64,000 nt of DNA from Candidatus Marsarchaeota archaeon (GCA_023485295.1 JAMCZQ010000007.1:26335-90334), one strand, 5' to 3'. Shown: positions 4,242 through 41,338, numbered from the stretch's first letter. Notes: generated by a model from the sequence alone, not told the origin. Numbers and translations: made by a program.

Positions 4242-4973
4242 TTAACCCTTGAGCTCTATATAGCCTGTTGAAACCATCTTGTTTAGCATCTGCTCGACGC
4301 GCGGAGGGGATATCTTGTAGGTTTTTGAAAACTCCATAAGGTCTATCGTATTGTTATGCGCATCGATCCAGTCCTCTATCATTACCATGAGCGACTCGTC
4401 CGAAAATGTCTCAAGCGATGACAGCCTGTTTTTCAGATCCCTGTTTTCGGCTGAAAGCTGCGCTGCCTGGACAGTCAGGTTTTTATTCGAAGCGGTAAGC
4501 TCTATGTTGAGCCTCTTCAATTCCCTGTATTCATTGAACAGCGAATCGTAGTTGTTGAAAAGCGCGCTGTAATTTTGCGACAGCGAGTTAAGCATGTCGT
4601 CTATGGCAGAATCCACATACTGGTATGTGCCTGCGGGGTCTGCATAATAGAGGTCAGTTATCAATGACAATATGCCAAGAAGGTTCTTTATAACATACAG
4701 CCTTCGCATCTTTTCGCTTGTGTCCTGCGCTATCGAATATTGCACAGATATCGTGTCAGGCTTCAATGTTATTATGAAGAACAGGAATGGGTTTTTCTGT
4801 ATATCCCTGCTTTCTATGTTCAGCATCACAAGGCTGTTGTCCGGATTTATTTTTATGGAGAACATCTGCAGCGTGGAAAGCCTTTTGGATATGGTCTGGA
4901 AGTCGCCGGTCAGCGTACCCTTAAGCGTGAACTCCGCAATTTTGGGCTCAACAAGCCCCGTTTCATTAGCCAT
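4242..4973 (-). CDS. Hypothetical protein: N-terminal domain, central coiled coil, C-terminal winged-helix-like module
   Basis: 243-aa ORF. Heptad-like stretch ELKRLNIELTASNKNLTVQAAQLSAENRDLKNRLSSLE. C-terminus MEFSKTYKISPPRVEQMLNKMVSTGYIELKG resembles a wHTH. Confidence 0.55.
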   Translation of the reverse strand: MANETGLVEPKIAEFTLKGTLTGDFQTISKRLSTLQMFSIKINPDNSLVMLNIESRDIQKNPFLFFIITLKPDTISVQYSIAQDTSEKMRRLYVIKNLLGILSLITDLYYADPAGTYQYVDSAIDDMLNSLSQNYSALFNNYDSLFNEYRELKRLNIELTASNKNLTVQAAQLSAENRDLKNRLSSLETFSDESLMVMIEDWIDAHNNTIDLMEFSKTYKISPPRVEQMLNKMVSTGYIELKG

Positions 4974-5063: not shown

Positions 5064-5447
5064 TCAACTCTTTATACGGGCAGTGCCCTTTTTGGCTTCC
5101 GGCTGCGCCTTCAACCCTGGCGTATAGCTCAGAAGGGACAATGCATACATAAGCGCAATGACAACAATGCCAGCGACAACCGCCCCGATGCTCCTGCCTG
5201 TAGCTATAAGCACAGCGGCAAAAAGCACACCTATCACCAAATAGGATATTGTCTTGGTGTTATACGAATCCCTAGCCTTTTTATATTTTACATAGCAGTC
5301 CTTGCAAACGACAAGCCTGTAGCCCTTTTCGTTCTTAGTCACGTTCTTCTTAAACCAGCGCATCGCGTCTATAATCCTGTCGTTTTTTACTTCAAGGCCG
5401 TCCTTCTCCAAGCCGCATATTATGCAGCGCGATTCCTTCTTCATCAA
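5064..5447 (-). CDS. Zn-ribbon (CxxC...CxxC) protein with C-terminal double TM anchor
   Basis: 127-aa ORF. CIICG ... CKDC, followed by ISYLVIGVLFAAVLIATG and AVVAGIVVIALMYALSLL. Confidence 0.6.
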   Translation of the reverse strand: MMKKESRCIICGLEKDGLEVKNDRIIDAMRWFKKNVTKNEKGYRLVVCKDCYVKYKKARDSYNTKTISYLVIGVLFAAVLIATGRSIGAVVAGIVVIALMYALSLLSYTPGLKAQPEAKKGTARIKS

Positions 5448-5448
5448 A

Positions 5449-5754
5449 TCAACTTAAGCTTATGGTTGCATCGAATATCCTTCCCGATTCAGCAAGCAGT
5501 CTCTGCTCCTCCATGCTGTTTATTGCATCGTTAATGGTTACATCGTCCATGCCAAGCCTTCTAAATATGTTTATTATGGCATCGCGCTTCAGGTTTATCT
5601 TTTCAAGCATTCCGGCAAAGGCTATGGCGTTTACGTGCCTGTGCATCTTCTCCATGTCTGAAAAGAGCTTCTCTATGCTGCTCTCATCTACCTTGTATAT
5701 GGTGAGCACCCTTCTCAGCTCCTGCCTGCTTATCACAAACGTATCCTTAGGCAT
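5449..5754 (-). CDS. Small helical protein, stand-alone paralog of the C-terminal ~62 aa of the adjacent ATPase
   Basis: 101-aa ORF whose start overlaps the ATPase stop by 8 nt. An ungapped alignment of YKVDESSIEKLFS...FRRLGMDDVTINDAINS to the ATPase tail YNVNVDSINKIFS...LKSLSIDDMLITRIISS gives about 16/62 identities. Confidence 0.6.
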   Translation of the reverse strand: MPKDTFVISRQELRRVLTIYKVDESSIEKLFSDMEKMHRHVNAIAFAGMLEKINLKRDAIINIFRRLGMDDVTINDAINSMEEQRLLAESGRIFDATISLS

Positions 5755-7273
5755 TCATAACACCTGTCGATGAAATAATCCTAGTTATAAGCATATCATC
5801 TATGCTGAGGCTCTTCAGGAACGACACTATGTCTGCATTCGTGACCCCGTTCGTTGCCATGAGCCTTACAAAGTCAAGTATCTTCAATGACCTGCCTTCG
5901 GTGTCAATGGTGCTGAATATCTTGTTTATAGAATCAACGTTCACATTATACTCTATGAACTTGTTCTTAAGCTCCTCTTCCTCAAACTGGTAATCGCGCT
6001 GTATAATGCCTGCACTGAGCTCGCTTTGCGTCAGCACATCTGACAGGTCTATTGTGTACACGTACAGCGGCTCCTCGCCCTTGACCCTGTCCAATACGAA
6101 TATTTCTGGGAACTGCAGCGATGTCTGGAAAGCCATGTTAACCGCGGCCTGCCCAACTCCAAATTTGCTTATCTCAGACCTTATGAAGTCTGAAAAATTA
6201 AGGGATCCCTGCACGTAGTCAAGGAACTTTTCGAACTTTATCCTTAGTATGAAGGATGTTCCCACGTTTGAGAATATTGCTTCGTTTATGTCTGTTGGGT
6301 TTTGTGACGCCACTATAAGGCCGAACTGGTACTTCCTGCCCTCCCTTACGATCATAACGGCATCGCTTTTTTCATCGCCTGCAATTTTCCACGCTTCATC
6401 AAGCACCACCAATGTGCGTATGCCCTTATTTTCGCTCCAGCCCTCGAATCGCATGCGCTCCTTTAACGTCTGCAGTATGAACAAGGCAGCAAGGGCCCTG
6501 AATCGTTCATCAGGCAGGCCGGACAGGTCTATATCAACCAGCCCTGAGCTTGCGAGCTTCTGCAGGTTTATTGTGCTTTTCCTTGAAAAATAATCCTCGC
6601 CCTCCCTTGCAAATTGCCTTAGCCTGTATATTGCATTTTCAAGCTCTGCAGGATATTCATAGGTGCCTTCCTGCAGCTGCTCCTCGAGTATCGATATCGC
6701 ATCCTTCAGGGTAGGCGCGTCTTTTCCTTCCGGCGCAGGCTCTGCTATGTTGAACCCTGCGTTGACATACGCCTGCTCTATAGCTTCTTCTGTGAGCCGC
6801 CTCTGCTCCGGATATGCTGCTATATCCGTCAGTATCTCAAAAGATGTCAGTATCTGCTTTGTCCTGTCCAGGGGTTTCATTCCTGAGAGGTCCATGATGT
6901 TTATATAGTCTCCTTTGCCTAGCGATACTATTACGCCGCCGCTCTGTTTTACCCATGCTTTGTACTCGGCAGCCCAGTCTATTATCACTGCATTTGTATC
7001 CCATATATAGCTGGCCCTTATTAGGAAAGTTTTCACGAAATAGCTTTTTCCCGCGCCTGTTATTCCTACAACTGCTATATGCGGGTTCGTGAGGTTCGTG
7101 AAAGACCAGCTGAACGGGACCTTGAACAGCTTCGTGCTTCCTATGTATATTGCCTTGAATGGGTCGTTTATCAATACGTTTGCAGGCGGCTCAGGGGGCC
7201 TTGACATGAAAGCCCTCTTCCCTATTTCATTGCTCATTATATGCTGCAATTTTAATATGGACATTATAATCAA
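5747..7273 (-). CDS. VirB4/TraC/TrbE-type (AAA_10/DUF87-like) secretion ATPase; a CedB-like candidate
   Basis: 508-aa ORF. Walker A GITGAGKS, IIDWAAEY, APTLKDAISILEE, Walker B VVLDEAWKI, REGRKYQFGLIVASQNPTDI. The DEAW plus RKY..Q..D pattern is VirB4-like rather than HerA-like. Confidence 0.75.
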   Translation of the reverse strand: MIIMSILKLQHIMSNEIGKRAFMSRPPEPPANVLINDPFKAIYIGSTKLFKVPFSWSFTNLTNPHIAVVGITGAGKSYFVKTFLIRASYIWDTNAVIIDWAAEYKAWVKQSGGVIVSLGKGDYINIMDLSGMKPLDRTKQILTSFEILTDIAAYPEQRRLTEEAIEQAYVNAGFNIAEPAPEGKDAPTLKDAISILEEQLQEGTYEYPAELENAIYRLRQFAREGEDYFSRKSTINLQKLASSGLVDIDLSGLPDERFRALAALFILQTLKERMRFEGWSENKGIRTLVVLDEAWKIAGDEKSDAVMIVREGRKYQFGLIVASQNPTDINEAIFSNVGTSFILRIKFEKFLDYVQGSLNFSDFIRSEISKFGVGQAAVNMAFQTSLQFPEIFVLDRVKGEEPLYVYTIDLSDVLTQSELSAGIIQRDYQFEEEELKNKFIEYNVNVDSINKIFSTIDTEGRSLKILDFVRLMATNGVTNADIVSFLKSLSIDDMLITRIISSTGVMNA

Positions 7274-8100
7274 CTCTCCTGGTCAAACATGTTTGTCAAT
7301 TCGCTGAACGTTGTCGGCAGTGAAAAATTGAAGTTGAATGTTGCATAAAGCTCCCTGCCAATGATCCTCTGCGTTGCCACATCGAAGGCGCTGAAATTCA
7401 GCTTAAGCTGCTCTATCTGGCCTTCCAGCGCGTCAAGAGCTGCCTTCTCCGACACTCCAATTGCAGTAGTCTCTATATACATGACCGTAGCTATCGGCTT
7501 TTCTCCCTGCGAGATTCTGTTTATCTTTGCCTGTATTGTATTGAGCTTTCTTTGGATATCTGATATTGTGACTTCGTTGGCATTGTTCTGCATGGCTCTT
7601 GAGAGCTGGAATTCCTGGTACGAACGTTTGCCTTCAAGCTCGTCCCTTATTCGCTGCACGTCCTGCCCTGCCGAAAGCACGTGGAATTTGAATGGAAAGT
7701 TTACGTTCATTACCATCTTTTCCCATGTGTCTGGGGCATTGGTCATTTTGTCCTCGTCATCCTCAGGCGCATTCTCCTCCCTGAAAGTGTAGCTGAATAG
7801 GTTCACGGCTATATACCCTGTTGCATAGAATATGCCGTTCACGTTCTTTATCACTGTGTTCTGCGCCTTGTTTATAAGGTAGTCCTTAGAAGGCTGGAAG
7901 CTAACACCCAGAATCGAGGTTATTGTTGAGAAGATCCTGTCATCAGCCCAATTCATTGCAAGTATGAAAATGGCTGTCAATACGAGTAGCAGTATCGCAA
8001 TCGCATGCAGTATGCCTTTTCCGAAAGCCGACAGGCCTACGAAAGCAAACAGTATTATTATAAGGCAGAAAAGCAGATACATGAGCTTGACTTCATCCAT
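7270..8100 (-). CDS. 2-TM plus soluble-domain protein, paralog of 8100..8933; candidate VirB3 / VirB4-N-domain-like partner of the ATPase
   Basis: 276-aa ORF with a 4-nt ATGA overlap with the ATPase gene. N-terminal hydrophobic hairpin. Shared pattern with its neighbour: VIKNVNGIFYATGYIAV versus ILKRVGDNFIATVYISI. Confidence 0.55.
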   Translation of the reverse strand: MDEVKLMYLLFCLIIILFAFVGLSAFGKGILHAIAILLLVLTAIFILAMNWADDRIFSTITSILGVSFQPSKDYLINKAQNTVIKNVNGIFYATGYIAVNLFSYTFREENAPEDDEDKMTNAPDTWEKMVMNVNFPFKFHVLSAGQDVQRIRDELEGKRSYQEFQLSRAMQNNANEVTISDIQRKLNTIQAKINRISQGEKPIATVMYIETTAIGVSEKAALDALEGQIEQLKLNFSAFDVATQRIIGRELYATFNFNFSLPTTFSELTNMFDQES

Positions 8101-8933
8101 TAGATCACTTGTTCTTGTATATTCTTGTTTATCTGCTCGGTTACCGTTGAAAATGGTATCAGGTATTCCGGCTCGACGAACTTGAGCAGGTCAGCTCCTG
8201 TTATTATGCTTGGCGGGACGCCGAACAGCGACCCTATCCCGGACATGAGCTCCCTGGCCTTTTGCTGGGCTATGCTTATGGCTTCGTACTCCTTGCTGCC
8301 TGTTGCTGACACTGTCACATAGGAAAGGAGCTCGAATGACAGGCTTTTGCTTATGCTGTCAAGCATGTTCCTCCACATTGCAAGCTTGCCCCTAACCCTC
8401 TCAAGGTCCTTTTTCGGGGCATTCTTGTCCTGCAGCTCAGCCTCCTCGTTTTCGGTCATGCTGATCGTTTCCCTGAGCTTCTGTATGTAATCATCCTTGT
8501 TCATCACATAGAGCTCCGTAGTGTACCTTGCCGGATCCTTAGAAAGGCCAACGAGCTTGCTTATCTGCATTGCAAAATCCAGCTTTTCTTCATCTTCCAT
8601 CTCTGTAGCAGACCTGTAGACAGGTATTGATATGTACACAGTGGCTATGAAATTGTCTCCGACCCTTTTAAGTATTGTGTCCTCGGTTTGCGACATCCAG
8701 TAAGCATTCTCCTTGCTAAGCACTATATGCCTTTTGTGCTGCTTTATAAGCGGTATTATAAGGTACGAATAGTACTTCGATGAAAATGCCAGTGCGTCAA
8801 AAATCATCGAAAGCAGTAGGAATATGATTTTTATGTAGGCTGGGATGAGCAGGTCCGGCGCCAGGATCACAACGCCAAGAAATATTGCCGATATAAACAA
8901 CAGCCCTACAAAAACCATCGATTGACTTGCCAT
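8100..8933 (-). CDS. 2-TM plus soluble-domain protein, paralog of 7270..8100; candidate VirB3 / VirB4-N-domain-like
   Basis: 277-aa ORF with a 1-nt TAATG overlap with the downstream gene. Two N-terminal TM segments, then a charged soluble domain. Confidence 0.55.
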   Translation of the reverse strand: MASQSMVFVGLLFISAIFLGVVILAPDLLIPAYIKIIFLLLSMIFDALAFSSKYYSYLIIPLIKQHKRHIVLSKENAYWMSQTEDTILKRVGDNFIATVYISIPVYRSATEMEDEEKLDFAMQISKLVGLSKDPARYTTELYVMNKDDYIQKLRETISMTENEEAELQDKNAPKKDLERVRGKLAMWRNMLDSISKSLSFELLSYVTVSATGSKEYEAISIAQQKARELMSGIGSLFGVPPSIITGADLLKFVEPEYLIPFSTVTEQINKNIQEQVI

Positions 8934-8983: not shown

Positions 8984-10636
8984 TCATATGAATCCGGCGC
9001 GAAGCCTTCCGCTCATCCTTGCAGTGCCTCCTATAAAGTTGGCGAGCTGCACTATGAATGCATATGTCACTGCGCTTATCAGGGCAGGGTAGAAGAGTAT
9101 CAAAAGCCAGAACGAATTTATCGTAGACTCTATGCTGCTTAGGTTTGTGACCAATGGGCTTGTGGATGTGAGGGCATTAAGCTCAGCTCCTCGTCCAGCG
9201 CCATACCTTGCAAGCAATGCCGATTCGGCATTGAGCTGCGTAATCAGGTGCGGTGCCGTAAAGTAGAAAGCGACTGCAAACAACAGCGGCATTACAAAGT
9301 AAAAGCCTGCCGCAGTCGCTATGAGTATGCCACCAAGCGATCTGGTTGGAAGTATTGCCCTCAATATCACGCCAGGCACCAGGAATACAGGTATTGCGGC
9401 CACGGCAAAGAATACTATAAGGTAATATTCCGCGTACAACGCAAGTATGCCGTCTGCTATGAACGAAGTTATGACTGCCGTCGGCTCTATGTAGAATATA
9501 TCCAATCCCAAGAACGCAAGCGGCACTATCTCGTTGGTTATGTTGGCTGCAGGATACGCTGGCGTCGATATTGTCGCCTTGATTGACGATAAATACATAT
9601 CATAGAAATATGTGCGGAACAATTCGTTATAAACGTTTTCTGCTGAGTTTATTGTCGTGGTTATAAGGTGCAAAGCAGTTGCGTAGGGGTTTATCGCCCC
9701 AACGAAAACGCCAGGCACCAGGCCGAATACAACTGCGCTTATGTAAAGGAATAGCACCACAATAATGGCGCTCGCAATCGCCTCATAAAGCTCCCCTACT
9801 CCGAAATTCCTTATCCTGCTGTTTTTGGTAGCTGCCCCAACCATAAATATGCCTCCTGCAATGAGGAAAGCTATAAGCACCACTATTATGGCTATTGGTA
9901 TGTAGCCCTGCCACGAGAAGTATATAGATTCGTTTATCGGGCAGTACCATGGCTCAGTGCTCTGAATTGTCTGTTCCAAGCTTGGAGGGAGCAGCCCGCA
10001 CCTGAGCGGCGGCGGCGTAGGCGTCGGGGTGCACGCAATCATATTGCTCGGGCAGCCGTTCGACGGGCCTGTAGTCTGATAGCTGCAGTCGGTAGGGCAG
10101 CTAAACCCTGTTGTTGGATTTACGCAGGTGTCGCAGCTGTAATATGCGGTGGATGTGCTTGTGGTGGAAGTGGTCGTGCTGCTTGTCGTAGACGTAGTTG
10201 AAGTGCTGGTTGTAGAAGTAGTAGAACTGGATGTTGAAGTAGTAGAGGTTGTTGTAAATATTGTGGATGTAGTGGTCCTGATTGTAGAAGTGGTCGTGGT
10301 ATGGAAAGCAATGCACTCTTCTTCAACACCGCCATGCGGGCACCTATTCGGAAGCACTTTGCAGTACCCATTGCATGGATAAAGTTCGCCGCAAAAGTCG
10401 CAATATGTCGTCATTATTGGATCGGAAAGCAGCTTTTCCGTAGACATTGTAAAAATTGCATAGGCCGGCTCGCCCTGGGTCTGTGACGACTGCGCGAAAG
10501 ATAAGCCGCCAGATATTTTCTGGATTCCAGAGCCTTGGCTCAATCCAACATTAGCATAGCCCAGCGCATAACCAATGATTACCGCTAGAATTGCAATGTA
10601 TACTGCATAGCTTACCAATCTCTTGTCGTAGTTCAA
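8984..10636 (-). CDS. Polytopic membrane protein, paralog family member (candidate VirB6/CedA-like) with an N-terminal Cys-rich plus Thr/Ser-rich ectodomain
   Basis: 550-aa ORF. Family motifs NFGVGELYEAIASAIIVVLF and ILPTRSLGGILIATAAGFYFVMPLLF. Many TM segments. Confidence 0.65.
   Translation of the reverse strand: MNYDKRLVSYAVYIAILAVIIGYALGYANVGLSQGSGIQKISGGLSFAQSSQTQGEPAYAIFTMSTEKLLSDPIMTTYCDFCGELYPCNGYCKVLPNRCPHGGVEEECIAFHTTTTSTIRTTTSTIFTTTSTTSTSSSTTSTTSTSTTSTTSSTTTSTTSTSTAYYSCDTCVNPTTGFSCPTDCSYQTTGPSNGCPSNMIACTPTPTPPPLRCGLLPPSLEQTIQSTEPWYCPINESIYFSWQGYIPIAIIVVLIAFLIAGGIFMVGAATKNSRIRNFGVGELYEAIASAIIVVLFLYISAVVFGLVPGVFVGAINPYATALHLITTTINSAENVYNELFRTYFYDMYLSSIKATISTPAYPAANITNEIVPLAFLGLDIFYIEPTAVITSFIADGILALYAEYYLIVFFAVAAIPVFLVPGVILRAILPTRSLGGILIATAAGFYFVMPLLFAVAFYFTAPHLITQLNAESALLARYGAGRGAELNALTSTSPLVTNLSSIESTINSFWLLILFYPALISAVTYAFIVQLANFIGGTARMSGRLRAGFI
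10148..10300 (-). repeat. Low-complexity Thr/Ser-coding tract (51 codons, TTTTSTIRTTTSTIFTTTSTTSTSSSTTSTTSTSTTSTTSSTTTSTTSTST)
   Basis: Read directly from the translation. At DNA level it is an imperfect gtng/gtag-type reiteration on the plus strand. Confidence 0.9.
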
Positions 10637-10646
10637 TCCATTACAC

Positions 10647-11693
10647 CTATATGAAGTTTGACAGCAGCTCCATGAAGCTCACCCTTTCTCCAACAGCTTT
10701 TGAAAAGTCAATTATAAATGCATCAAGTATGACAAAGTTTATGAAAGGAATAAAGGTAAGGCCGACTATCGCATATCCGAAGCCGCTTATTATGCTCGTA
10801 GGTATAAGCGATACCGTGCCTGTAGCCACGAATTCTAAGAAATCAGCTATTCCAGCAGGTAGTATTGATATCAGACCGGCTCCTGAAAGCATGTTCACGT
10901 TTATGAAGCCGTATGTGATGCTTATGAGCAGCGGGTATACAATCCCAAGGCCCAGGCCAAACGCAATCATGGCTCCGCCAAACGTCCTGGTAAAGCCGAA
11001 TACCCTGGCGATTAGCCCTATTGTAAGGAAGAACGTAAGGAACAGTATCGAGCCGGATATTAGCAGCAGCTGCAGGTTATTCAGCACAAGCATGAAGACG
11101 AGCCCGGAAAGGGCAAGGCCGATATAGCCCTCCAGGCCTGCAGGATAAACGCTGTTTAGGGTGGTGCTTATCTTAAGGCCCAAAATGGGCTGCAGCCCAA
11201 GGGAAAAGCCCGGCGATTGCCCTGCAACAAGCGCCAAGACGTCAACGAATTCGAAATACGAGAACGCGTTGTTGGTAAAAGTGCCTATATCACATGCTGA
11301 AAGCGAGAAAAGCGTGTTTATGCTTGCAGTATTGCATTCTTTAGGGAGCAGCCCTACGCTGTTGTACGCATTCACTGGATTAATCAGGAAAACGTAGAAC
11401 AGCCCAAGGAATATTGCAAGCAGCATAAGCGATATTAATGCCTCGTATATCTGCACCTTTGCCCAGTTCTTCGCATTCTGGCTGTATATCGTGCTGCCGA
11501 GCATGTATACAAATGCGGCAACGAATATGACTATGAGCACCGCGATTATTGCGATTGACATTCCGCCTGCAGGCGGGAACACCCCGTAGTATATCGAAGT
11601 GGTGGTAGTGCTTGCGCCAGCTATATTCGGAATAAGCGCGAGTGCTACTGCTAAAAGCACCGCAACTGCTGTTACATCTCTGATCTTGCTCAT
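10647..11693 (-). CDS. Polytopic membrane protein, paralog family member (candidate VirB6/CedA-like)
   Basis: 348-aa ORF with a signal-peptide-like N-terminus. Motifs NWAKVQIYEALISLMLLAIF and VFGFTRTFGGAMIAFGLGLGIVYPLL. Confidence 0.65.
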   Translation of the reverse strand: MSKIRDVTAVAVLLAVALALIPNIAGASTTTTSIYYGVFPPAGGMSIAIIAVLIVIFVAAFVYMLGSTIYSQNAKNWAKVQIYEALISLMLLAIFLGLFYVFLINPVNAYNSVGLLPKECNTASINTLFSLSACDIGTFTNNAFSYFEFVDVLALVAGQSPGFSLGLQPILGLKISTTLNSVYPAGLEGYIGLALSGLVFMLVLNNLQLLLISGSILFLTFFLTIGLIARVFGFTRTFGGAMIAFGLGLGIVYPLLISITYGFINVNMLSGAGLISILPAGIADFLEFVATGTVSLIPTSIISGFGYAIVGLTFIPFINFVILDAFIIDFSKAVGERVSFMELLSNFI

Positions 11694-12778
11694 ATGACTC
11701 CTCTCAATGCCTTCGACGTGCTCAGGCTCGGCGCGCCTAGGAAATCACCTACAGTTTCAGCGAAATCAAGCGAAAACATTATTGCTAAGATCGTGCCGAG
11801 CAGCAGGTACATTACAGGCGTGACAACAGATTCTATGAATTCTGTCACAACATTCCCGTGTATGAAGGATATAAGTGCGCTCAAGTCGCTAACAGGGTTG
11901 AAAATCGTTGTTATGGTGAACGGATCAGAAGTCAAAGCCGTTACTGTAACGGCAGTTATGGGCGGCATCGTTGCTACAAACGCTATGATCAGCGGAAGGA
12001 AAATGTAGAATCCTATAAATAACCCAAGGAAAGCCCCGCCAGCCGCGCGAGTCCATGGTATGGTGCGCAGAACTATCCCGACATAGAGGAATATCGGGAA
12101 AAGGCTGTATATCAGCGACAAAAGCACGGCCACTCCGAAAAGCAAGGCTATTATAACTCCTGTAAAGCTTATCAGCAGCTTCAATATCTGCGTAATGAAA
12201 TAAGCGCCGTAATACGGCGAGAAGCCAATTCCCCAATAATTGGGGTGCAGGCCTATGGACGTAGATGCCAGAAGCGAATAGAAATCGGATTCTACTGCCA
12301 AAGCCCTGAAAGCACCGAGCGTATTGAATGCAGTGCTAGCCACACTGACACAGTCGTTTGTAAAGATGCCTGTCCAGTCATATTTGGCCAGCACCCCGCT
12401 TTTGCCTATCGTGCTTCCTGTTGCGGAAAGCACGCCAAGAAATATCAGGATTATGAGTACGGTTATTACTGCCTCGCCTATCTCGGATTTTGCAAAGCTT
12501 GTAAGTTTATCTATGTTAAATGCATACCCTATTGCAAATGCCATGCCAGCTATCGTGAGCATTATCATAATGATCAATCCAGACAGCACGATTACGCCGC
12601 CTGCAATGGAAGTGTTCCCTATTACGCTATTGCTCGAAGCAGTAGTAGGAATAAGGCTGCTGCAAAGGTTTGTCGCGGACGAGCCGAAGCTGAAATTGGC
12701 AAGCATAAGCAAGGCCATTAGCGCTAGGGCTGCAATCCCTGCGTGCTTCCTTAATGACATGCTGCCGTACATCTGCAT
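11690..12778 (-). CDS. Polytopic membrane protein, paralog family member (candidate VirB6/CedA-like)
   Basis: 362-aa ORF with a 4-nt overlap with the downstream gene. Motifs SFAKSEIGEAVITVLIILIF and TIPWTRAAGGAFLGLFIGFYIFLPLI. Confidence 0.65.
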   Translation of the reverse strand: MQMYGSMSLRKHAGIAALALMALLMLANFSFGSSATNLCSSLIPTTASSNSVIGNTSIAGGVIVLSGLIIMIMLTIAGMAFAIGYAFNIDKLTSFAKSEIGEAVITVLIILIFLGVLSATGSTIGKSGVLAKYDWTGIFTNDCVSVASTAFNTLGAFRALAVESDFYSLLASTSIGLHPNYWGIGFSPYYGAYFITQILKLLISFTGVIIALLFGVAVLLSLIYSLFPIFLYVGIVLRTIPWTRAAGGAFLGLFIGFYIFLPLIIAFVATMPPITAVTVTALTSDPFTITTIFNPVSDLSALISFIHGNVVTEFIESVVTPVMYLLLGTILAIMFSLDFAETVGDFLGAPSLSTSKALRGVI

Positions 12779-14259
12779 CAGACCAATTTTGACAGGCCTG
12801 CAAGGGCCGTATCGCCTCCCATGAGGCCGGATATGCCTATTATCCCGCTCAGCACTATTATGAGATTTATTATAGGTATGAAATATGCCGATATTCCAAG
12901 CACTCCATAAGTCCTCACCAGCATGTAATATCCGTTCAGTGCCTGCGTTTCAGTGCACCCCTGCGGCAGCCCGGAAATGTCAGGCGCAACAGGCACAGAA
13001 TGATTTATAAGGGCAAGCAGCTGCGTTGCAAGCCCGGTAAAAGGTATCAGCAAATAGCTCGTGTCTTCAACCTCCGCATTAAGCAGGTTTCCGTCTGCCG
13101 GCCAGCATCCAGTGCTTTTCGTAGCGTTCGCTACGCTCGGCATGACGTAGAAGTTTGTCACATAAGGCCTGCCTGTGCTATTTGGTATGTAATAAGTCGA
13201 ATTCGTGAAAAGGTTGCCGAACCCGTAATAAGCGCCAAGGTCATTCGAATTGTATGTGAATGGGGTTGTGCTGGTTGGCGGCGTATAGCCCATGAGTGCA
13301 CCAAGGCCATGGCCTAGGTACAGGTATTCTATGGAGAATACCAGCGGGAAGAACAATATTGCGCCTATGCCTATGGCTATCAGCAGCCCGCCTATCTTTC
13401 TTGTAAAGGGCAGTACCCTGAGTATGACGCCGCCAAATATAAGGTACGGCCATATATATAGGAAGATAGAAGTTAAGGTGAGCTGCGCTATAAAGCTCTC
13501 AAGCGCAAGCGTCATCAGCACGCCTATGCTGTCGAGGGATTTGTACACCAGCCTAAGCCCAGCATATGGGGAATTTTGATAGTGTATGAACAGGTCAGCC
13601 TCTGTAGGCGCTGGAAGCATGCACTGCACAGATATTGGAGAAGGTGGCTCAGGCGATATGCATATGTTTATCTGCGGGCTCAGGTGCTCCAGGTAACCAA
13701 TGAAAGCGTCGAATATAAAATACGAGTTTAGGTTGAGCGCAGTCTGGTTCGTAAGGTTTGCTATCACTACTCCTGATGCAGCAAGCGGGTAGTCCGCCTT
13801 CTCAGTAAATGTATTCTGCTTTGCCACTATGTTGCAAAGCCCAGGAAAGCCAGTTGGATTCTTGGAGAACAGCAGCGAGCTTCCTGTAAGCGACTTTGAG
13901 GCATTCAGCACCGAAAGCTGCGAACTTTCGTTTATGCCATTGCACAAGCTTAGGACATTCGCCGGGTTCATGAGCGCCGTTGAGGAAGTTACGGAATAGA
14001 ACGCATCCCCGAATATCACCAGCACGCTTACCAGCAGCACTACAAGCACCGCAGTGCCTATGAGCTGGTAAAATTCTGTCATGGCCGACGACTTCACCCT
14101 GGCGTTGCCAAGTATTGCGCCTGCCATATACCATGCTCCAACTATGGCTCCATCAAGCACTATGGCTATTGCTATGAGCGGGAACAGAGATGAGTATACC
14201 CCGTGGAATGCAGAAATCTGCAGCAATATCGGTATAAGCAACATCATAAGCTCGCCCAA
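12778..14259 (-). CDS. Polytopic membrane protein, paralog family member (candidate VirB6/CedA-like)
   Basis: 493-aa ORF. Motifs AMTEFYQLIGTAVLVVLLV and VLPFTRKIGGLLIAIGIGAILFFPLVF. 1-nt overlap at 12778. The start may instead be the Met at 14244, giving a 1-nt overlap with the upstream stop. Confidence 0.65.
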   Translation of the reverse strand: MGELMMLLIPILLQISAFHGVYSSLFPLIAIAIVLDGAIVGAWYMAGAILGNARVKSSAMTEFYQLIGTAVLVVLLVSVLVIFGDAFYSVTSSTALMNPANVLSLCNGINESSQLSVLNASKSLTGSSLLFSKNPTGFPGLCNIVAKQNTFTEKADYPLAASGVVIANLTNQTALNLNSYFIFDAFIGYLEHLSPQINICISPEPPSPISVQCMLPAPTEADLFIHYQNSPYAGLRLVYKSLDSIGVLMTLALESFIAQLTLTSIFLYIWPYLIFGGVILRVLPFTRKIGGLLIAIGIGAILFFPLVFSIEYLYLGHGLGALMGYTPPTSTTPFTYNSNDLGAYYGFGNLFTNSTYYIPNSTGRPYVTNFYVMPSVANATKSTGCWPADGNLLNAEVEDTSYLLIPFTGLATQLLALINHSVPVAPDISGLPQGCTETQALNGYYMLVRTYGVLGISAYFIPIINLIIVLSGIIGISGLMGGDTALAGLSKLV

Positions 14260-16004
14260 AATGACGCAACACCCTCTATGCCGGCATCAAGAGACCGCGC
14301 AAGGCCCATGGCAAATCCTATTGCAACTGCAAGGTTTAAGCCAAATAGGAATACAGCAAGAAATATAAATTCAGACATGTTCTGGATTATGTACGAAGCT
14401 ACAGACACTATAGGAACCCTCAGCGTAGCATACAGCGACGAGCTAAGAAGGTTGTTCGTGACCGGAGTGGATACGCCCAGGCCAGAGCCGAAAATGGAGA
14501 ATAGGCTGTTTTTGCTTGAGGTGATAAGCGTATTGCTTTCCAAGAAAGAAGAGCTCGGAAGAGCTGGAAGCACGTATGCAGTGCTCAGGCAGTTGGTGCA
14601 GCCGTACAGCGGATTCAGCGATGGCGTGTATATCCAATAAATTATGTAGCTGTCGAAAGCTATCATCAGCGGGTAAATTATGTATATCGCTATCGCTATT
14701 GCCAGCACCGCGTTAGAAATCGTTCGAAGGCCTGTGCCGCCGTATGGTATAAACCTTAGTACTAGCGCAACAGGCAGCAGCACTGTAAAAGCAGTATACT
14801 CAAATATGGGCAGCGCCAGGTACTGAAGGAACAGCATGCCTATAGTTATTATCAGTATTGGAGAGAGCGCGTCGAAATACACATCAGAAAGAGAGCCGTA
14901 TAATGTTCCAAAGTCATGCGCATACGATATGGTTACGCTGAATACCCCTCCAATGGTCGGAGATATGCTAAGGTCTTGAGAAAGCACTGTAAATATCCTG
15001 CCGACTATCGCATACCTTATAGAGGTCTGGTAAACGTAGCCTATCAGGTTTATGCCTCGATTCAATGCCAGTGTGCCTATGTAATAATCCGCATATTCGA
15101 ATGGCGTAAGCCCTGTAACTCCAGTGACTCCTGCTGCGGAAAGCACCTTCGAGCCGAGAGAAGCGGAAAGATTGCATGCTGATGTAGTAAGCGAAAGCAG
15201 CACGAGCAGTATTACTATGCTTATAACAAGCTGCGTTATCTCAACCCTTGTTATCTGTGTAAGCCTTACGCGCAAGGATGTTGGCATGAACCTGCTTATC
15301 ATGAAAATAAATGCCACTACAAGGAAACCAAAAAGGATAATTATGTAATTTATCGGAAGCCACCCTGCTATGTAAGGAGAGCCAGGCCCGCCGTAAATGC
15401 TGCAGTAGTTTACTGCAGGCACTACTGTTGTGAAAGTTGTGCTTGTCGTGGAGCTTGTCGATGTTGTCGTAGTAGAGCTAGTAGTGGACGATGTTGTCGA
15501 TGTTGTTGTAGACGTCGTAGAAGTCGTAGAAGTCGTAGATGTTGTCGATATTATTGTAGAGGAAGTTGTTTTTACCGTGCTGGTGGTGGAGCTTGTGGTG
15601 GTTTTGCTCGATTCGCAGGTGCCAAGCCTATATCCACTGTTGGAGAGGACGCATTCTCCACTGCTTGTTTTTGTAATATATTGCGCCTTGGAGTTTGCCA
15701 CGCAGCTGTAGCCTGTATCGCATGAAGAATAGCCGCAATATCCATTAGGCGCATTTATTAGGCAGCTGCTTCCTGCACCGCCAAACACTGGCTGGCTTAT
15801 CAAAGTGCTGTTTTGAACATCTGCAGTTTTGGAATATGCAGTATTAGGCACAATGCTATCTTGGTGGGCCGGCACCATTACAGGCGAGCTTTTTGCCGTT
15901 AAGCTGCTTGCAATATGGCTTCCGGCATATAAGAACGAAGCTACTGCTACAGCTATTATAATCATGTAAATAACTGCAGTCAATGCTTTATTATGCAAAC
16001 TCAC
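14244..16004 (-). CDS. Polytopic membrane protein, divergent paralog family member with an N-terminal Cys-rich plus Thr/Ser-rich ectodomain
   Basis: 586-aa ORF. Divergent core motif FIPYGGTGLRTISNAVLAIAIAIYIIYPLMIAF. N-terminal TM, six Cys within about 50 aa, then a 62-aa T/S tract. Confidence 0.65.
   Translation of the reverse strand: MSLHNKALTAVIYMIIIAVAVASFLYAGSHIASSLTAKSSPVMVPAHQDSIVPNTAYSKTADVQNSTLISQPVFGGAGSSCLINAPNGYCGYSSCDTGYSCVANSKAQYITKTSSGECVLSNSGYRLGTCESSKTTTSSTTSTVKTTSSTIISTTSTTSTTSTTSTTTSTTSSTTSSTTTTSTSSTTSTTFTTVVPAVNYCSIYGGPGSPYIAGWLPINYIIILFGFLVVAFIFMISRFMPTSLRVRLTQITRVEITQLVISIVILLVLLSLTTSACNLSASLGSKVLSAAGVTGVTGLTPFEYADYYIGTLALNRGINLIGYVYQTSIRYAIVGRIFTVLSQDLSISPTIGGVFSVTISYAHDFGTLYGSLSDVYFDALSPILIITIGMLFLQYLALPIFEYTAFTVLLPVALVLRFIPYGGTGLRTISNAVLAIAIAIYIIYPLMIAFDSYIIYWIYTPSLNPLYGCTNCLSTAYVLPALPSSSFLESNTLITSSKNSLFSIFGSGLGVSTPVTNNLLSSSLYATLRVPIVSVASYIIQNMSEFIFLAVFLFGLNLAVAIGFAMGLARSLDAGIEGVASFWASL
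15426..15611 (-). repeat. Low-complexity Thr/Ser-coding tract (62 codons, SSKTTTSSTTSTVKTTSSTIISTTSTTSTTSTTSTTTSTTSSTTSSTTTTSTSSTTSTTFTT)
   Basis: Read directly from the translation. Confidence 0.9.
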
Positions 16005-16006
16005 AC

Positions 16007-17308
16007 CTATGCAATCTTGAATTTACCGACGCCCAAGCTCAGCTTTCCGCCAAGCATGCTTGCTATCGCGCCTGCAATCACCAGCGTTATCACAAGATCC
16101 AATATTATCAATATGAATTGAAAGAGCACAGGCGTTCCATAAAACCCTATGATATTGAATGCCGGATATATTGCGCCATGCCCTGAGAGCATAATGGCCA
16201 TGCCCCCACCCCAGCCGTTTTCAAAGGAATTTGCATACAAGTTCGCGTTTGGGTCACCGGCAGTTTGTGCATCTACAAGTATATCTGAGGCAGTGCCGTA
16301 AGTCGGATATGCTATAACGCAAAGCGCATCTGTGAATAACGATTCCGCAGAAATACCGCTTCCAAAACAGGTTACTGTCGGTGCAGTGTTCTGCTGATAC
16401 AGTATTGGCTGTATGTAATTTGTCATAGGTACATTGAATACAACCAGCATTGCTGGAAAGATGAGCCCTATTGCCATGCCGATTGCTATGAAGCTGCCTC
16501 CGAGCCCACGAAGGAACGGTATGGCGCGGAACACTATGCCTATTGGCAGGAATAGCGCCAGGCCTATGAGCACTATGTAATAAAGGAGGCTGCTGAGGGT
16601 TTCAAGCACAAAGTAAACAGGTATAAACACTACTTCTATGAAGTCCTTTATAAAAGAGTAGTTCGGCAGCTCTAAATTTGACTCTATTACAGAGCTGCTC
16701 AGAAATCCAGAAGACGACCCGAACTGCAGTGCCCCAACGAAAGGTATCGGTATGGGTATCCATGTCAATACTGCAGTGCTCTTAAGCTCTCCTACAGAGG
16801 AAGAAAGGCCTTCGAACGCGTAGAAGCTCTCATTGAGCATCAGCATTGTCGGATCAATGTATGCGCTGTAATCAACCGCATAAAGCTGGTTCAAATTATC
16901 GGAAACGCTGCTGTAAGCACTACTATTCAGCGGCAACGAGACGACAGGCACACTGCTACCAGCAAGAGCAAGCGCTATTGCGCCAACGATAATAAGTATT
17001 GCAAAGATCAAAACAATCAGAAGAGCGCTTTTCGCCGCTTCATAAAGCTCTCCTTGGTACCAGTTCCTCAGCGACCCTATCTGCAGGACGTTTCCCACCA
17101 TGAAGGCTATGCCTATCAGCAGGAAAGAAAGAAGAAGGCCTATAAGCGCAAGCGGTATTGCCCCGGCAATGCAAAGTCCTACGTTAGACGAAGTAGTCGA
17201 AATGCCTGTAAACGGGCATGTCACCGATGTTGTGCTCTGTGCACTGCTAATCGATGCCAATAATACAAAGGCCATGAACGCCGCGATATACGCAGGTTTT
17301 AGTCGCAT
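16007..17308 (-). CDS. Polytopic membrane protein, paralog family member (candidate VirB6/CedA-like)
   Basis: 433-aa ORF with signal peptide MRLKPAYIAAFMAFVLLASISSAQS. Motifs NWYQGELYEAAKSALLIVLIF and AIPFLRGLGGSFIAIGMAIGLIFPAML. Confidence 0.65.
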   Translation of the reverse strand: MRLKPAYIAAFMAFVLLASISSAQSTTSVTCPFTGISTTSSNVGLCIAGAIPLALIGLLLSFLLIGIAFMVGNVLQIGSLRNWYQGELYEAAKSALLIVLIFAILIIVGAIALALAGSSVPVVSLPLNSSAYSSVSDNLNQLYAVDYSAYIDPTMLMLNESFYAFEGLSSSVGELKSTAVLTWIPIPIPFVGALQFGSSSGFLSSSVIESNLELPNYSFIKDFIEVVFIPVYFVLETLSSLLYYIVLIGLALFLPIGIVFRAIPFLRGLGGSFIAIGMAIGLIFPAMLVVFNVPMTNYIQPILYQQNTAPTVTCFGSGISAESLFTDALCVIAYPTYGTASDILVDAQTAGDPNANLYANSFENGWGGGMAIMLSGHGAIYPAFNIIGFYGTPVLFQFILIILDLVITLVIAGAIASMLGGKLSLGVGKFKIA

Positions 17309-17367: not shown

Positions 17368-18105
17368 TTACCTCTTCAGCATTGCAAAGCGCCTTATATA
17401 AGTTTCGCTCTGCAGCACTACAAGAAATGGCAATGCGAAGAACGAATCTATAATGAGCGCGGCATAGGCAGCAGCGCTGGCACCCCCGAACGCAATCGGT
17501 ACAAGGTCCACAACGCTGAGTATTATAAATGCAGCAAGCAGCCACAAAACGAAGTAGGCGAATTTCTTCCTCATGAAGTGCAGGCTAGCCTGTATCGCCC
17601 TCACGGGCCTGTTTTCGTCTATGACTATTGAAGTTGGCGCATAAAACAAGAACGGTATCAGTATTATCACAACGATAGCCGTTATTATGCCAGAATAGCC
17701 AGTGTAGTATGTTATGAAATTTATGAATACAGGTATCGCAGTGAATGCTAGAAGCACTATAAAAACATTGCTCGTATTCTTCTCAAGTGAGCGTATGACC
17801 TCACCCTTTATCCTTGTGACTGTCCTGCTATGCTTTACTATCGTATTGATTGCAACTATGGCAAAGCTTAGAAATATCAGGGAGAATATCGTTGCAGCAA
17901 TTATCACTGCGGCATCAAAAAGGTTCAGGTTAAGGTATATGCTGCCAGTCCTAAGCAGTATGCTGCCAAGATCGTTATAAGTAGGAAACGGCGCAAGCAA
18001 CGGTATAAGCACCGCTATGAGAAAAGATATGGAGAAAAACCATATGAGCTTTATGTGCTTCTTGTAGATTCCTGCGGAATCCCCTAAAACCTCAAGCATT
18101 AACAC
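17368..18105 (-). CDS. Multi-pass membrane protein of unknown family (about 6 TM)
   Basis: 245-aa ORF with alternating hydrophobic segments and short basic loops. Co-oriented between the pilin-like genes and the membrane paralog array. Confidence 0.6.
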   Translation of the reverse strand: MLMLEVLGDSAGIYKKHIKLIWFFSISFLIAVLIPLLAPFPTYNDLGSILLRTGSIYLNLNLFDAAVIIAATIFSLIFLSFAIVAINTIVKHSRTVTRIKGEVIRSLEKNTSNVFIVLLAFTAIPVFINFITYYTGYSGIITAIVVIILIPFLFYAPTSIVIDENRPVRAIQASLHFMRKKFAYFVLWLLAAFIILSVVDLVPIAFGGASAAAYAALIIDSFFALPFLVVLQSETYIRRFAMLKR

Positions 18106-18180
18106 TACCTTCCATTATATTAGCAACAGAAATATTAAAAATAGGTCTTTTTGCCAAAAAGCAACAGCTAAGTGCCATCA

Positions 18181-18213
18181 AAGAAAAAATGCAGCCTGCA
18201 TTTTCATGCAGGC
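18181..18213 (-). terminator. Hairpin plus T-run just 3' of pilin-like copy A
   Basis: Perfect 8-bp stem gcctgcat (18194..18201) / atgcaggc (18206..18213) with a 4-nt loop. On the minus strand it is followed by TTTTTTCTT. Confidence 0.5.
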
Positions 18214-18619
18214 GCTTCAACCTCGCGAATCAGCAATATGACTTTATTGCGGACTCTGAGTTTCCTGTCAGGATTGCCAGTATGAACGGCGCGAGTTCTG
18301 CTATTATTACTCCTATTACGCCTCCTACTACCATTCCCATACCATATCCTTGTATGGAACCCTTGCTTTGTCCTGGCATTATGTGTGCAGCTGCATATAG
18401 CGCTCCTCCAAGCACTATCAGTGCCAGTCCCAATATGAATATACCGATGCTTATAGCACTGTATATTGGGCATATAACGCTGGTTATCGTTGCAAATGCG
18501 TTAGGCGCTGCGTATGATACGGTCGATGCGAATGCAAGCATTGGCAGTACCATCAGTACTATTCGGAAGACTTTCGAGTGCAATAGGTTCACTATTGACA
18601 GTAGTTTGGTCTCTAACAT
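18185..18619. repeat. Tandem direct repeat, unit A (period 577 bp), covering the pilin-like CDS plus its 3' hairpin
   Basis: I aligned it by eye to 18762..19196. It is identical except at 18488, 18562, 18608, 18611 and 18614. Confidence 0.9.
18230..18619 (-). CDS. VirB2/TrbC-like pilin candidate, copy A (signal peptide plus helix-loop-helix hydrophobic hairpin)
   Basis: The track ORF 18230..18628 starts at a GTG; the likely start is the ATG at 18619 (MLETKLL), preceded by AAGGTG. Leader ...MLAFASTVSYA/AP. Mature part: SVICPIY..ISIGIFILGLALIVLGGALYAAA - HIMPGQSKGSIQGYG - MGMVVGGVIGVIIAELAPFILAILTGNS. Confidence 0.65.
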   Translation of the reverse strand: MLETKLLSIVNLLHSKVFRIVLMVLPMLAFASTVSYAAPNAFATITSVICPIYSAISIGIFILGLALIVLGGALYAAAHIMPGQSKGSIQGYGMGMVVGGVIGVIIAELAPFILAILTGNSESAIKSYC

Positions 18620-18665
18620 TTCGTACACCTTTATACATCTTTAATTTAATTTCTTAAATAGCACA

Positions 18666-18675: not shown

Positions 18676-18754
18676 GTTTCGCAATAAGTCTTGCAATACT
18701 GCGCACGTGCAGCAAACCTGCTTTGTATAGCTGTGGAACATAAAAAAATAGGAA

Positions 18755-18790
18755 CAAAAATAAAAATGCAGCCTGCATTTTCATGCAGGC
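18755..18790 (-). terminator. Hairpin plus T-runs just 3' of pilin-like copy B
   Basis: Same 8-bp stem (18771..18778 / 18783..18790). On the minus strand it is followed by TTTTTATTTTTGTT. Confidence 0.5.
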
Positions 18791-19196
18791 GCTTCAACCT
18801 CGCGAATCAGCAATATGACTTTATTGCGGACTCTGAGTTTCCTGTCAGGATTGCCAGTATGAACGGCGCGAGTTCTGCTATTATTACTCCTATTACGCCT
18901 CCTACTACCATTCCCATACCATATCCTTGTATGGAACCCTTGCTTTGTCCTGGCATTATGTGTGCAGCTGCATATAGCGCTCCTCCAAGCACTATCAGTG
19001 CCAGTCCCAATATGAATATACCGATGCTTATAGCACTGTATATTGGGCATATAACGCTGGTTATTGTTGCAAATGCGTTAGGCGCTGCGTATGATACGGT
19101 CGATGCGAATGCAAGCATTGGCAGTACCATCAGTACTACTCGGAAGACTTTCGAGTGCAATAGGTTCACTATTGACAGTAGTTTTGTTTCCAACAT
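18762..19196. repeat. Tandem direct repeat, unit B
   Basis: See unit A. Confidence 0.9.
18807..19196 (-). CDS. VirB2/TrbC-like pilin candidate, copy B
   Basis: The track ORF 18807..19238 extends further upstream, but the homologous ATG (MLETKLL) is at 19196 and is preceded by AAGGTG. The protein differs from copy A by one Ile/Val in the leader. Confidence 0.65.
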   Translation of the reverse strand: MLETKLLSIVNLLHSKVFRVVLMVLPMLAFASTVSYAAPNAFATITSVICPIYSAISIGIFILGLALIVLGGALYAAAHIMPGQSKGSIQGYGMGMVVGGVIGVIIAELAPFILAILTGNSESAIKSYC

Positions 19197-19244
19197 TTTT
19201 GTACACCTTGACATTTCTTGAATTGAATCATTCAGCAATCATAA

Positions 19245-41227: not shown

Positions 41228-41338
41228 AGGATGCACTCGCAGGGGCCATAGTCCTGCTTATATAAGCAGAATCAGGAATAAATGGCAAACAAAAAATAAA
41301 TAGGCTACACCTATTTTTATGCAGTCTTGTATAAAGGC

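Follow-up and report, generated by a model that had tools for sequence, protein, structure and literature searches.

A phylum-conserved array of six paralogous membrane proteins in Micrarchaeota, encoded between a VirB2/TrbC-type pilin and a VirB4/HerA-clade ATPase: a candidate platform for a Ced/Ted-like machine

Every locus encoding a type IV secretion system (T4SS), or one of the archaeal Ced and Ted systems, includes a polytopic membrane protein as partner of its pilin and ATPase. VirB6 proteins possess four to six hydrophobic helices and include “extended” forms with large hydrophilic domains; the solved representative, TrwI, is a homopentamer, and VirB6 paralogs are described in Ehrlichia (PMC12857230). 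Among the archaeal systems, Saccharolobus encodes the paralog pairs CedA/CedE (five helices) and CedB/CedD (PMC11868833), while the chromosomal T4SS of Patescibacteria (candidate phyla radiation, CPR) comprises six divergent VirB2-like pilins and is essential for epibiotic growth in Southlakia (PMC12857230, PMC12102498). Here we examine a locus in a 64,000-nt stretch of DNA assigned to Candidatus Marsarchaeota archaeon (GCA_023485295.1 JAMCZQ010000007.1:26335-90334; hereafter the window), where six adjacent genes for polytopic membrane proteins occupy positions 8984-17308 of the minus strand. An earlier note, made from this DNA alone, had suggested that they might be a VirB6-like expansion in a host-dependent archaeon. 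We find that the six genes constitute an ancient set, fixed in number and order across the Micrarchaeota and bordered by genes for a VirB2/TrbC-type pilin and a VirB4/HerA-type ATPase, which probably serves as membrane platform for a hitherto undescribed machine of secretion or uptake.

The six adjacent open reading frames (ORFs) that the earlier note had delimited are all present, and are here named A to F. Paralog A (8984..10636, minus strand as are all genes of the operon; 550 aa) consists of an N-terminal anchor, a Cys-rich module, a Thr/Ser-rich linker and a five-helix core at approximately residues 236-550. Paralog B (10647..11693; 348 aa) is the shortest member and nearly the core alone, with one ortholog per locus, and paralog C (11690..12778; 362 aa) displays the conserved motifs GIVLRTIPWTRAAGGAFLG and DFAETxGDxLGAPSL in an alignment of 20 orthologs. 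Enlarged outside loops distinguish paralog D (12778..14259; 493 aa), paralog E (14244..16004; 586 aa) combines an N-terminal anchor, Cys-rich module and Thr-rich linker with the core, and paralog F (16007..17308; 433 aa) has the architecture of C in its AlphaFold2 model. The six proteins add up to 2,772 aa and their genes are tightly packed, with gaps or overlaps of -16 to +10 nt; across the operon, genes overlap or lie at most 59 nt apart. The start of E differs among gene callers, which predict 392 aa (P0002, from residue 195), 584 aa or 586 aa.

BLASTP comparisons among the six proteins gave E-values of 1e-8 to 1e-5 for most pairs. Orthogroup profiles, each built from about 75 orthologs out of other genomes, were also compared by hhalign, and all 15 pairs matched at 95.5-99.3% probability (E 1.5e-8 to 9.5e-21), with values of 97.1-99.3% for A against B-F. 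Because every pair of profiles matches at this level, the six genes are established by sequence comparison as paralogs of one membrane-protein family, as the note had held; each of the strings it had quoted for two shared signature blocks was likewise found in the translations and aligned in the multiple alignments. Outside the core, A and E carry mucin-like Thr/Ser-rich linkers after their Cys-rich modules, and the corresponding DNA contains degenerate 9-nt periodic repeats (9930-10330 and 15430-15600). Comparison of the N-terminal modules of A and E revealed no similarity outside the Thr-rich runs. Median ortholog lengths are 386 aa for A and 400 aa for E, and the long Cys- and Thr-rich N-terminal extensions of both vary by lineage.

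The distribution of the array was surveyed in one genome per species with an alignment of C-type orthologs, which identified 135 relatives of paralog C. The best 80 of these 135 loci were taken with 10-kb flanks, their ORFs were searched with the window proteins, and linkage was judged within 10 kb. Nearly all 80 loci belong to Micrarchaeota; one of them (L005) comes from Ca. Micrarchaeum sp. A_DKE, a cultivated organism whose genome is complete. The order F-E-D-C-B-A was exact in 70 loci and the remaining 10 were cut by contig ends; every untruncated locus (70/70) thus holds one ortholog of each paralog in a single order. Within a genome the paralogs are 20-28% identical, as against 33-43% for orthologs across the phylum, and the duplications therefore predate the radiation of the sampled Micrarchaeota. 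The earlier note was accordingly mistaken about timing when it spoke of a six-fold amplification in situ, the copies being ancient and one-to-one across the phylum, and its analogy to a lineage-specific proliferation of the Rickettsiales kind fails on the same fixed hexad.

These identities and the invariant gene order bear directly on the possibility that the array arose by recent amplification, or as an integrated conjugative element, in this genome only. Such an origin would fit the tandem layout and the recent tandem duplication of the neighbouring pilin gene; however, it is contradicted by paralogs that diverge more within a genome than orthologs do across the phylum and by the one order of all complete loci, and can be considered effectively refuted. 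As for a mobile element in particular, the operon lies in core chromosome, surrounded by genes for topo VI B, FtsZ, MCM, MetRS, XPD, a Rad50-like protein and Lon. The window showed neither a tRNA gene nor an integrase, and Pfam and NCBIfam scans of the operon and window proteins found no VirD4, relaxase, VirB8/9/10/11 or integrase. A mobile-element origin was rejected on this chromosomal context.

Also identified was a second lineage, represented by two loci (L085:10001-17781 and L087:9875-17635), with six consecutive genes of the family. The two contigs have GC contents of 32% (L085) and 47% (L087), and their proteins are 43-47% identical between both. Here two conserved giant ORFs (1,817-1,826 aa and 975-985 aa), together with a YkuD_2 (L,D-transpeptidase-like) gene, are transcribed divergently from the array, and a Pfam search of the two giant ORFs returned no match. 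Since this lineage keeps the six genes with no ATPase or pilin found within 10 kb, the hexad is the most conserved unit of the locus.

Homologs of the six proteins are annotated as “hypothetical proteins” lacking Pfam domains, in metagenome-assembled genomes (MAGs) labelled Candidatus Micrarchaeota, Micrarchaeia, Micrarchaeaceae and, in some cases, Marsarchaeota. An exhaustive profile search recovered 2,708 cluster representatives at E <=1e-3 and 1,637 at E <=1e-10, with clusters defined at 50% identity, which makes this a large protein family for which no Pfam model is defined. Every gene has its nearest relatives in Micrarchaeota (DPANN), among them Ca. Micrarchaeum sp. A_DKE, and the supposition of a host-dependent archaeon in the earlier note is thereby upheld. 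A near-identical public contig (JAMCSV010000013.1; L001) and sister MAGs (FK_Sedi bins) bear the name “Candidatus Marsarchaeota” at NCBI, and a few other loci are labelled Methanothrix, Acidiferrales or “bacterium”. These odd labels, Marsarchaeota included, are probably binning or naming errors.

In the main lineage the hexad belongs to a colinear cluster of 15 genes: pilin, m245, F, E, D, C, B, A, p277, p276, ATPase, p101, p127, cc243 and big783. Upstream of the array, one to four pilin genes and the 245-aa membrane protein m245 were found in 58 of the 63 loci with enough flank; directly downstream, p277, p276 and the ATPase were found in 54 of 64. The ATPase (5747..7273; 508 aa) is the most conserved protein of the operon, with a mean pairwise identity of 0.71. 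It matches the Pfam families DUF87 (HerA; E 3.1e-16), AAA_10 (1.5e-13) and TraG P-loop (1.9e-10), the NCBIfam models CedD (4.9e-19), VirB4-like CD1110 (1.4e-17) and CedB (3.4e-17), and also those of HerA, TraC and the VirB4 of the Mycoplasma integrative conjugative element (ICE). Among PDB sequences it matches HerA (2.6e-11) and VirB4 (4ag5; 1.2e-8 over residues 61-332). Taken as an ATPase domain, it is matched about equally by the VirB4, TraC, CedB, CedD and HerA models, and it does not include the VirB4 N-terminal domain. These family matches identify it as a P-loop ATPase of the VirB4/CedB/CedD/HerA clade.

Between this gene and the array lie two paralogs of one another (hhalign 96.7%), each ~277 aa long, p276 (7270..8100) and p277 (8100..8933), each with two N-terminal membrane helices followed by a soluble domain, of ~200 aa in p277. 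These may be equivalents of VirB3 or of the VirB4 N-domain that are encoded apart from the 508-aa ATPase, given that in Sulfolobales CedB and CedD split homology to the VirB4 N-domain between them (PMC11868833). The consensus of p276 matched the Mycoplasma ICE VirB4 model NF045975 at positions 27-291 with an E-value of 0.003, but comparison with one sequence, R388 TrwK, did not bear this out. Single-sequence comparisons of p276 and p277 with TrwK (VirB4), which are of low power, were negative, and the p276 profile gave chance-level matches only among PDB sequences. We treat the possible identity of p276 as a split VirB4 N-terminal domain as a lead only.

On the other side of the array, the first pilin gene (18230..18628) encodes a protein of 132 aa with a signal peptide, two hydrophobic helices and a PGQSKGxxQGYG loop. 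On its own this protein matches Pfam TrbC weakly (E 0.011), and single orthologs give weak matches to T4SS_pilin or TrbC (E 0.004-0.007). The consensus of 76 orthologs, in turn, matches PF04956 with an E-value of 3.7e-8; its 33.9 bits exceed the gathering score of 27.9, and the alignment spans profile positions 8-97 of 98. This match identifies the small protein, at the level of family profiles, as a TrbC/VirB2-family pilin. Matches of the pilin profile to PDB sequences did not exceed chance level, and a low-power comparison of single sequences with TrwL was negative.

A second pilin gene (18807..19238) is a near-identical tandem duplicate of the first, with a likely start codon giving ~129 aa. 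The repeated segments (18180-18640 and 18757-19240) include a 300-nt repeat at 99% identity; ~430 nt are alike save for 3-4 positions, and the flanks differ. Only one copy is present in the near-identical contig L001, and pilin genes number 0-4 per locus in other Micrarchaeota. The tandem copy may have arisen very recently, may vary within the population or may be an artefact of assembly. Two Cys positions also recur in the pilin family, one directly ahead of the first hydrophobic helix and one at, or close to, the very C terminus; in the window protein these are C53 and C132. It is speculation that an end-to-end disulfide between them would mimic the head-to-tail cyclisation known for TrbC/VirB2 pilins.

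The position of the array between a pilin and an ATPase of these types is therefore borne out by family matches and gene order. Because both components are present and VirD4, relaxase and VirB8/9/10/11 were not found, the operon is, judged by gene content, of the domesticated archaeal Ced/Ted kind and T4SS-derived. The family locus is chromosomal, includes a VirB2-like pilin and a HerA/VirB4-clade ATPase, and shows no detectable relaxase, all of which is as in Ced.

We examined the architecture of the family through hydropathy of the six proteins and AlphaFold2 models of C (predicted local distance difference test, pLDDT, 84.8; predicted template modelling score, pTM, 0.78) and F (pLDDT 84.1; pTM 0.80), and the resulting architectures agree. 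The shared layout begins with a signal peptide or anchor and a hairpin of two long hydrophobic helices; next come an ectodomain built from a long helix plus a beta-hairpin, another hairpin, a loop on the outside, and helix 5 with a short tail behind it. The predicted topology is one of five long hydrophobic helices with the N terminus outside and the C terminus inside. The first of the two signature blocks corresponds to a short K/R-bearing loop past helix 1 and the start of helix 2, with a nearly invariant Glu. The second corresponds to an R...R..GG loop joining helices 3 and 4, together with helix 4, and features two nearly invariant Arg residues, a Gly-Gly and an invariant Pro. Both blocks are predicted by the positive-inside rule to be cytoplasmic. 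Both the helix count and the core of ~300 aa are in line with what has been described for VirB6, with four to six hydrophobic helices (PMC12857230), and for the five-helix CedE (PMC11868833).

Direct tests of relationship, in contrast to these indirect features, weigh in several respects against assigning the hexad a VirB6/CedA-like part. PF04610 (TrbL/VirB6), against which the earlier note had proposed a hidden Markov model comparison, was matched by none of the six window proteins (E <=1), 95 family members (E <=0.01) or six consensus sequences (E <=1). By hhalign, the 95-sequence family profile and a 20-sequence profile reached 0.3% and 0.1% against a TrwI/VirB6 profile, which is narrow and of limited power, consisting of R388 TrwI and 36 homologs, all PF04610 and at least 50% identical to TrwI. 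The family profile matched nothing among PDB sequences at E-values up to 10, and Foldseek searches of the models of C and F against PDB and BFVD returned nothing at E <=0.001. For model C, TrwI chains (7o3v, 8rt9 and 8rtd) appeared at ranks 9, 12 and 24, with E-values of 0.5-1.2, template modelling (TM) scores of 0.24-0.31 and a root-mean-square deviation of ~10 A; for model F they did not rank among the top 50. These values are not significant, and a monomer model may not superpose on TrwI, most of which lies outside the membrane in its complex. The top Foldseek matches (taste receptors, TTYH and designed helical repeats) had TM scores <0.2 and were dismissed as helical noise.

Similarity to CedA is weak. 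Ced_CedA (NF041796) was the only NCBIfam family matched by more than one member (3 of 95 at E <=0.01; best 5.3e-6). Paralog C matched it with an E-value of 9.6e-5 and 22.1 bits over residues 192-333, in an alignment that places helices 3-5 of C on model positions 110-240 of 259. This score does not reach the curated cut-off of 330 bits, and none of the six consensus sequences matched the model. With no match to PF04610 or by hhalign, and no significant one by Foldseek, we do not class the six-paralog family as a member of VirB6 or of CedA, the latter having been compared by way of its NCBIfam model. Distant homology of the hexad to VirB6/CedA is possible but unproven. What survives of the VirB6-like assignment is a role suggested indirectly by operon position, topology with its helix count, the weak CedA match and, as described next, a pilin-like hairpin in one paralog.

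The pilin profile matched the profile of paralog E at 89% by hhalign (E 2.3e-6), an alignment covering the N-terminal hairpin and including the Cys ahead of helix 1 and the loop Pro, whereas column-shuffled and reversed controls gave at most 0.3%. Against the merged family hairpin the value was 31% (E 5e-4), and against A, B, C, D and F at most 12%, so that clear pilin similarity is confined to E, a point against the VirB6/CedA-like reading. An N-terminal relation to the system's own pilin has been reported both for CedA/CedA1 and for VirB6/VirB2 (PMC9905601, Beltran et al. 2023). The same hairpin raises the alternative that the six proteins are pilus-associated subunits, such as minor pilins, tip or adhesin proteins, inserted via this element in a manner comparable to the six pilins of Patescibacteria, which are essential for epibiosis (PMC12857230). 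Single members weakly match T4SS_pilin and a Mycoplasma pilin-like conjugation protein, which would agree with this, as would the variable ectodomains. However, at 350-590 aa, with three extra long hydrophobic helices and cytoplasmic loops, the paralogs differ considerably from pilins of ~70-130 aa; five of the six show no significant pilin similarity, and each is fixed at one copy where pilin copies vary from 0 to 4. We consider a pilus-subunit identity improbable.

Nor do the data favour subunits of a solute transporter or permease with no part in a secretion machinery. The proteins are polytopic, and ABC-transporter and other transporter chains do occur among the non-significant Foldseek matches, but no transporter family in Pfam or NCBIfam was matched by the 95 members, the structural matches of model F all have TM scores <0.2, and the operon lacks an ABC or other transport ATPase or a binding protein, its ATPase being of FtsK/HerA/VirB4 type. 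We regard this explanation as highly improbable. The earlier note had named placement in an unrelated transporter or permease superfamily, with no linkage to VirB4-type ATPases in other genomes, as the outcome that would overturn its proposal; what we observe instead is a family with no transporter match whose array adjoins the ATPase module in most loci.

No other gene of this operon could take the place of the polytopic partner found throughout T4SS, Ced and Ted loci, and on this and the other indirect evidence above we lean, with modest confidence, towards a hexad that works like VirB6/CedA. More specifically, we somewhat favour a fixed hetero-oligomeric platform that fills the role of VirB6/CedA in a DPANN symbiont, as part of a Ced/Ted-like machine derived from a T4SS. 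From the fixed number and order of the paralogs, the overlapping genes and the conserved loops on the predicted cytoplasmic face, we infer that the hetero-oligomer is obligate. In such a platform, one copy of each paralog would assemble in the membrane, and the cytoplasmic face, formed by both signature blocks and the C-terminal tail, would dock the ATPase module of ATPase, p276 and p277. The pilin-like hairpins and variable ectodomains might then serve as a base for extraction and polymerisation of the VirB2-like pilin, or for passage of macromolecules. By analogy with Ced and Ted the substrate would most plausibly be DNA, the partner would be a Thermoplasmatales host, and uptake of host material is a plausible use for a host-dependent symbiont.

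A competing possibility is that the six proteins form a new heteromeric platform with no evolutionary tie to VirB6/CedA, involved for instance in anchoring or export of large glycosylated surface proteins or adhesins, or in a host contact site, with pilin and ATPase merely operon neighbours. None of the direct VirB6 tests gave a significant match, the fold has no significant PDB match, and the second-lineage hexad, whose lack of a pilin or ATPase within 10 kb also counts against a VirB6/CedA-like part, is paired with giant ORFs instead. Further, the N-termini of orthologs are variable, with Thr-rich linkers, isolated PKD and Ig_3 matches and lengths up to 1,237 aa, and the last protein of the operon (783 aa) has an N-x-S/T-rich ectodomain. 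On the other hand, pilin and ATPase module flank the hexad in the great majority of Micrarchaeota loci, with overlapping genes, a polytopic partner is expected and is otherwise missing, and the weak repeated CedA signal and the pilin-like hairpin of E speak against this explanation. We judge an unrelated platform possible, if on the unlikely side. The evidence accommodates the alternative raised in the earlier note, in which a new protein family would build a heteromeric platform in the membrane, no less well than its VirB6-like proposal.

A bolder version would have the six paralogs form a pseudo-sixfold ring, one of each, matched to a hexameric ATPase, as the core of a DPANN-specific machine taking DNA or other macromolecules from a Thermoplasmatales host. 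This version is doubtful. Cryo-electron tomography at DPANN-host contacts shows filaments, tubes and docking structures (PMC11329633), and such a ring could be the docking or entry platform for these intercellular filaments and tubes.

Several further genes are conserved with the hexad. Between pilin and F, the polytopic membrane protein m245 (17368..18105; 245 aa) occurs at the same position in ~69 loci with a mean pairwise identity of 0.52, and no Pfam or NCBIfam family matched it. Downstream of the ATPase are p101 (5449..5754; 101 aa; colinear in ~62 loci), which has weak matches only; p127 (5064..5447; 127 aa; colinear in ~60 loci), which has a Cys-x2-Cys zinc-ribbon-like N terminus and membrane helices; and cc243 (4242..4973; 243 aa; colinear in ~62 loci), which joins a coiled coil to a C-terminal winged-helix-like region and matches ZapB, DUF3450 and Fe_dep_repress weakly. 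The cluster is closed in most loci by big783 (1739..4090; 783 aa), in which the large ectodomain is followed by one membrane helix, at around residue 550, and then by some 200 aa of cytoplasmic domain. No Pfam family matched big783. Its identity as the Micrarchaeum S-layer protein was considered and rejected, that protein being a different one of 101 kDa with PF05123. Long antisense ORFs on the plus strand of the operon (e.g. 10591-11127, 12245-12824, 18189-18644 and 18691-19221) are very likely not genes, because only the 15 operon ORFs recur in related loci. Elsewhere the window carries genes of ordinary chromosomal function, including those for a Rad50/SMC-like ATPase, an XPD-type helicase, MCM, MetRS, FtsZ, glutamate dehydrogenase and isocitrate dehydrogenase, with 38924-41236, 45266-47119 and 48108-50174 among the genes concerned.

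These results provide a concrete, testable and phylum-conserved candidate for the means by which nucleotides, lipids and proteins pass from hosts to DPANN archaea, and the operon supplies candidate genes for the filaments, tubes and docking structures at DPANN contacts (PMC11329633). Ca. Micrarchaeum sp. A_DKE, which can be grown in culture, has the system. Should the ring version prove true, the machine would stand in Archaea where the essential T4SS of CPR epibionts stands in Bacteria.

Compared with described systems, the locus resembles Ced of Sulfolobales, which is likewise chromosomal and domesticated, with no relaxase found and a pilin of the VirB2 kind. The Micrarchaeota ATPase scores best against the CedD and CedB models, the polytopic partner has five hydrophobic helices in both, and paralog pairs occur in Ced (PMC11868833). 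The pilin-like N-terminal region reported for CedA (PMC9905601) is clear here only in paralog E, and Ced_CedA is the only repeated family match of the hexad, at 22 bits against the 330-bit cut-off. Unlike Ced, which has one or two such polytopic proteins, this locus has six fixed paralogs; its ATPase lacks the membrane and N-terminal domains, which may sit in p276 and p277; extra conserved genes (245, 101, 127, 243 and 783 aa) accompany it; and the organism is a DPANN symbiont rather than a crenarchaeon. With Ted of Thermoproteales it shares a cleavable pilin signal peptide, as in TedC and bacterial VirB2 (PMC9905601), and a pilin gene adjoining the polytopic gene or genes with a VirB4-like ATPase a few genes off. 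This likeness is one of description and gene layout, and Ted has one TedA where the Micrarchaeota have a hexad.

Among bacterial systems, TrbL/VirB6 (TrwI of R388) resembles the family in its four to six helices, core of ~300 aa and location between pilin and VirB4. It differs in forming a homopentamer, as opposed to six different genes, and Pfam, hhalign and structural searches gave no significant match to it. Tandem polytopic copies in a host-associated organism recall the rvh T4SS of Rickettsiales, with 4-5 VirB6 paralogs, and trwI of Bartonella, where several TrwI proteins come from a single chromosome. Those copies, however, are recognisable as PF04610 and lineage-specific, whereas the present proteins have no Pfam match and are fixed in number and order phylum-wide. 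A fixed set of six polytopic paralogs is thus found in none of Ced, Ted, the CPR T4SS or the Rickettsiales and Bartonella systems. Recent T4SS reviews, work on Micrarchaeota genomics and cultivation, and the Ced and Ted papers make no mention of a DPANN six-paralog system, although this coverage of the literature is incomplete and only suggestive.

A biological parallel is offered by the T4SS of Patescibacteria, which is also chromosomal and phylum-wide in ultrasmall, host-dependent cells, has no relaxase, has VirB2-like pilins that sit in a monoderm, and includes a six-fold array of divergent paralogs. The two systems differ in what has been multiplied, with six pilins and a single VirB6 in Patescibacteria, and six polytopic proteins with one to four pilin genes here; they also differ in domain, the former belonging to Bacteria and the latter to Archaea. 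The parallel would suggest that ultrasmall symbionts of both prokaryotic domains have converged on domesticated conjugation machinery.

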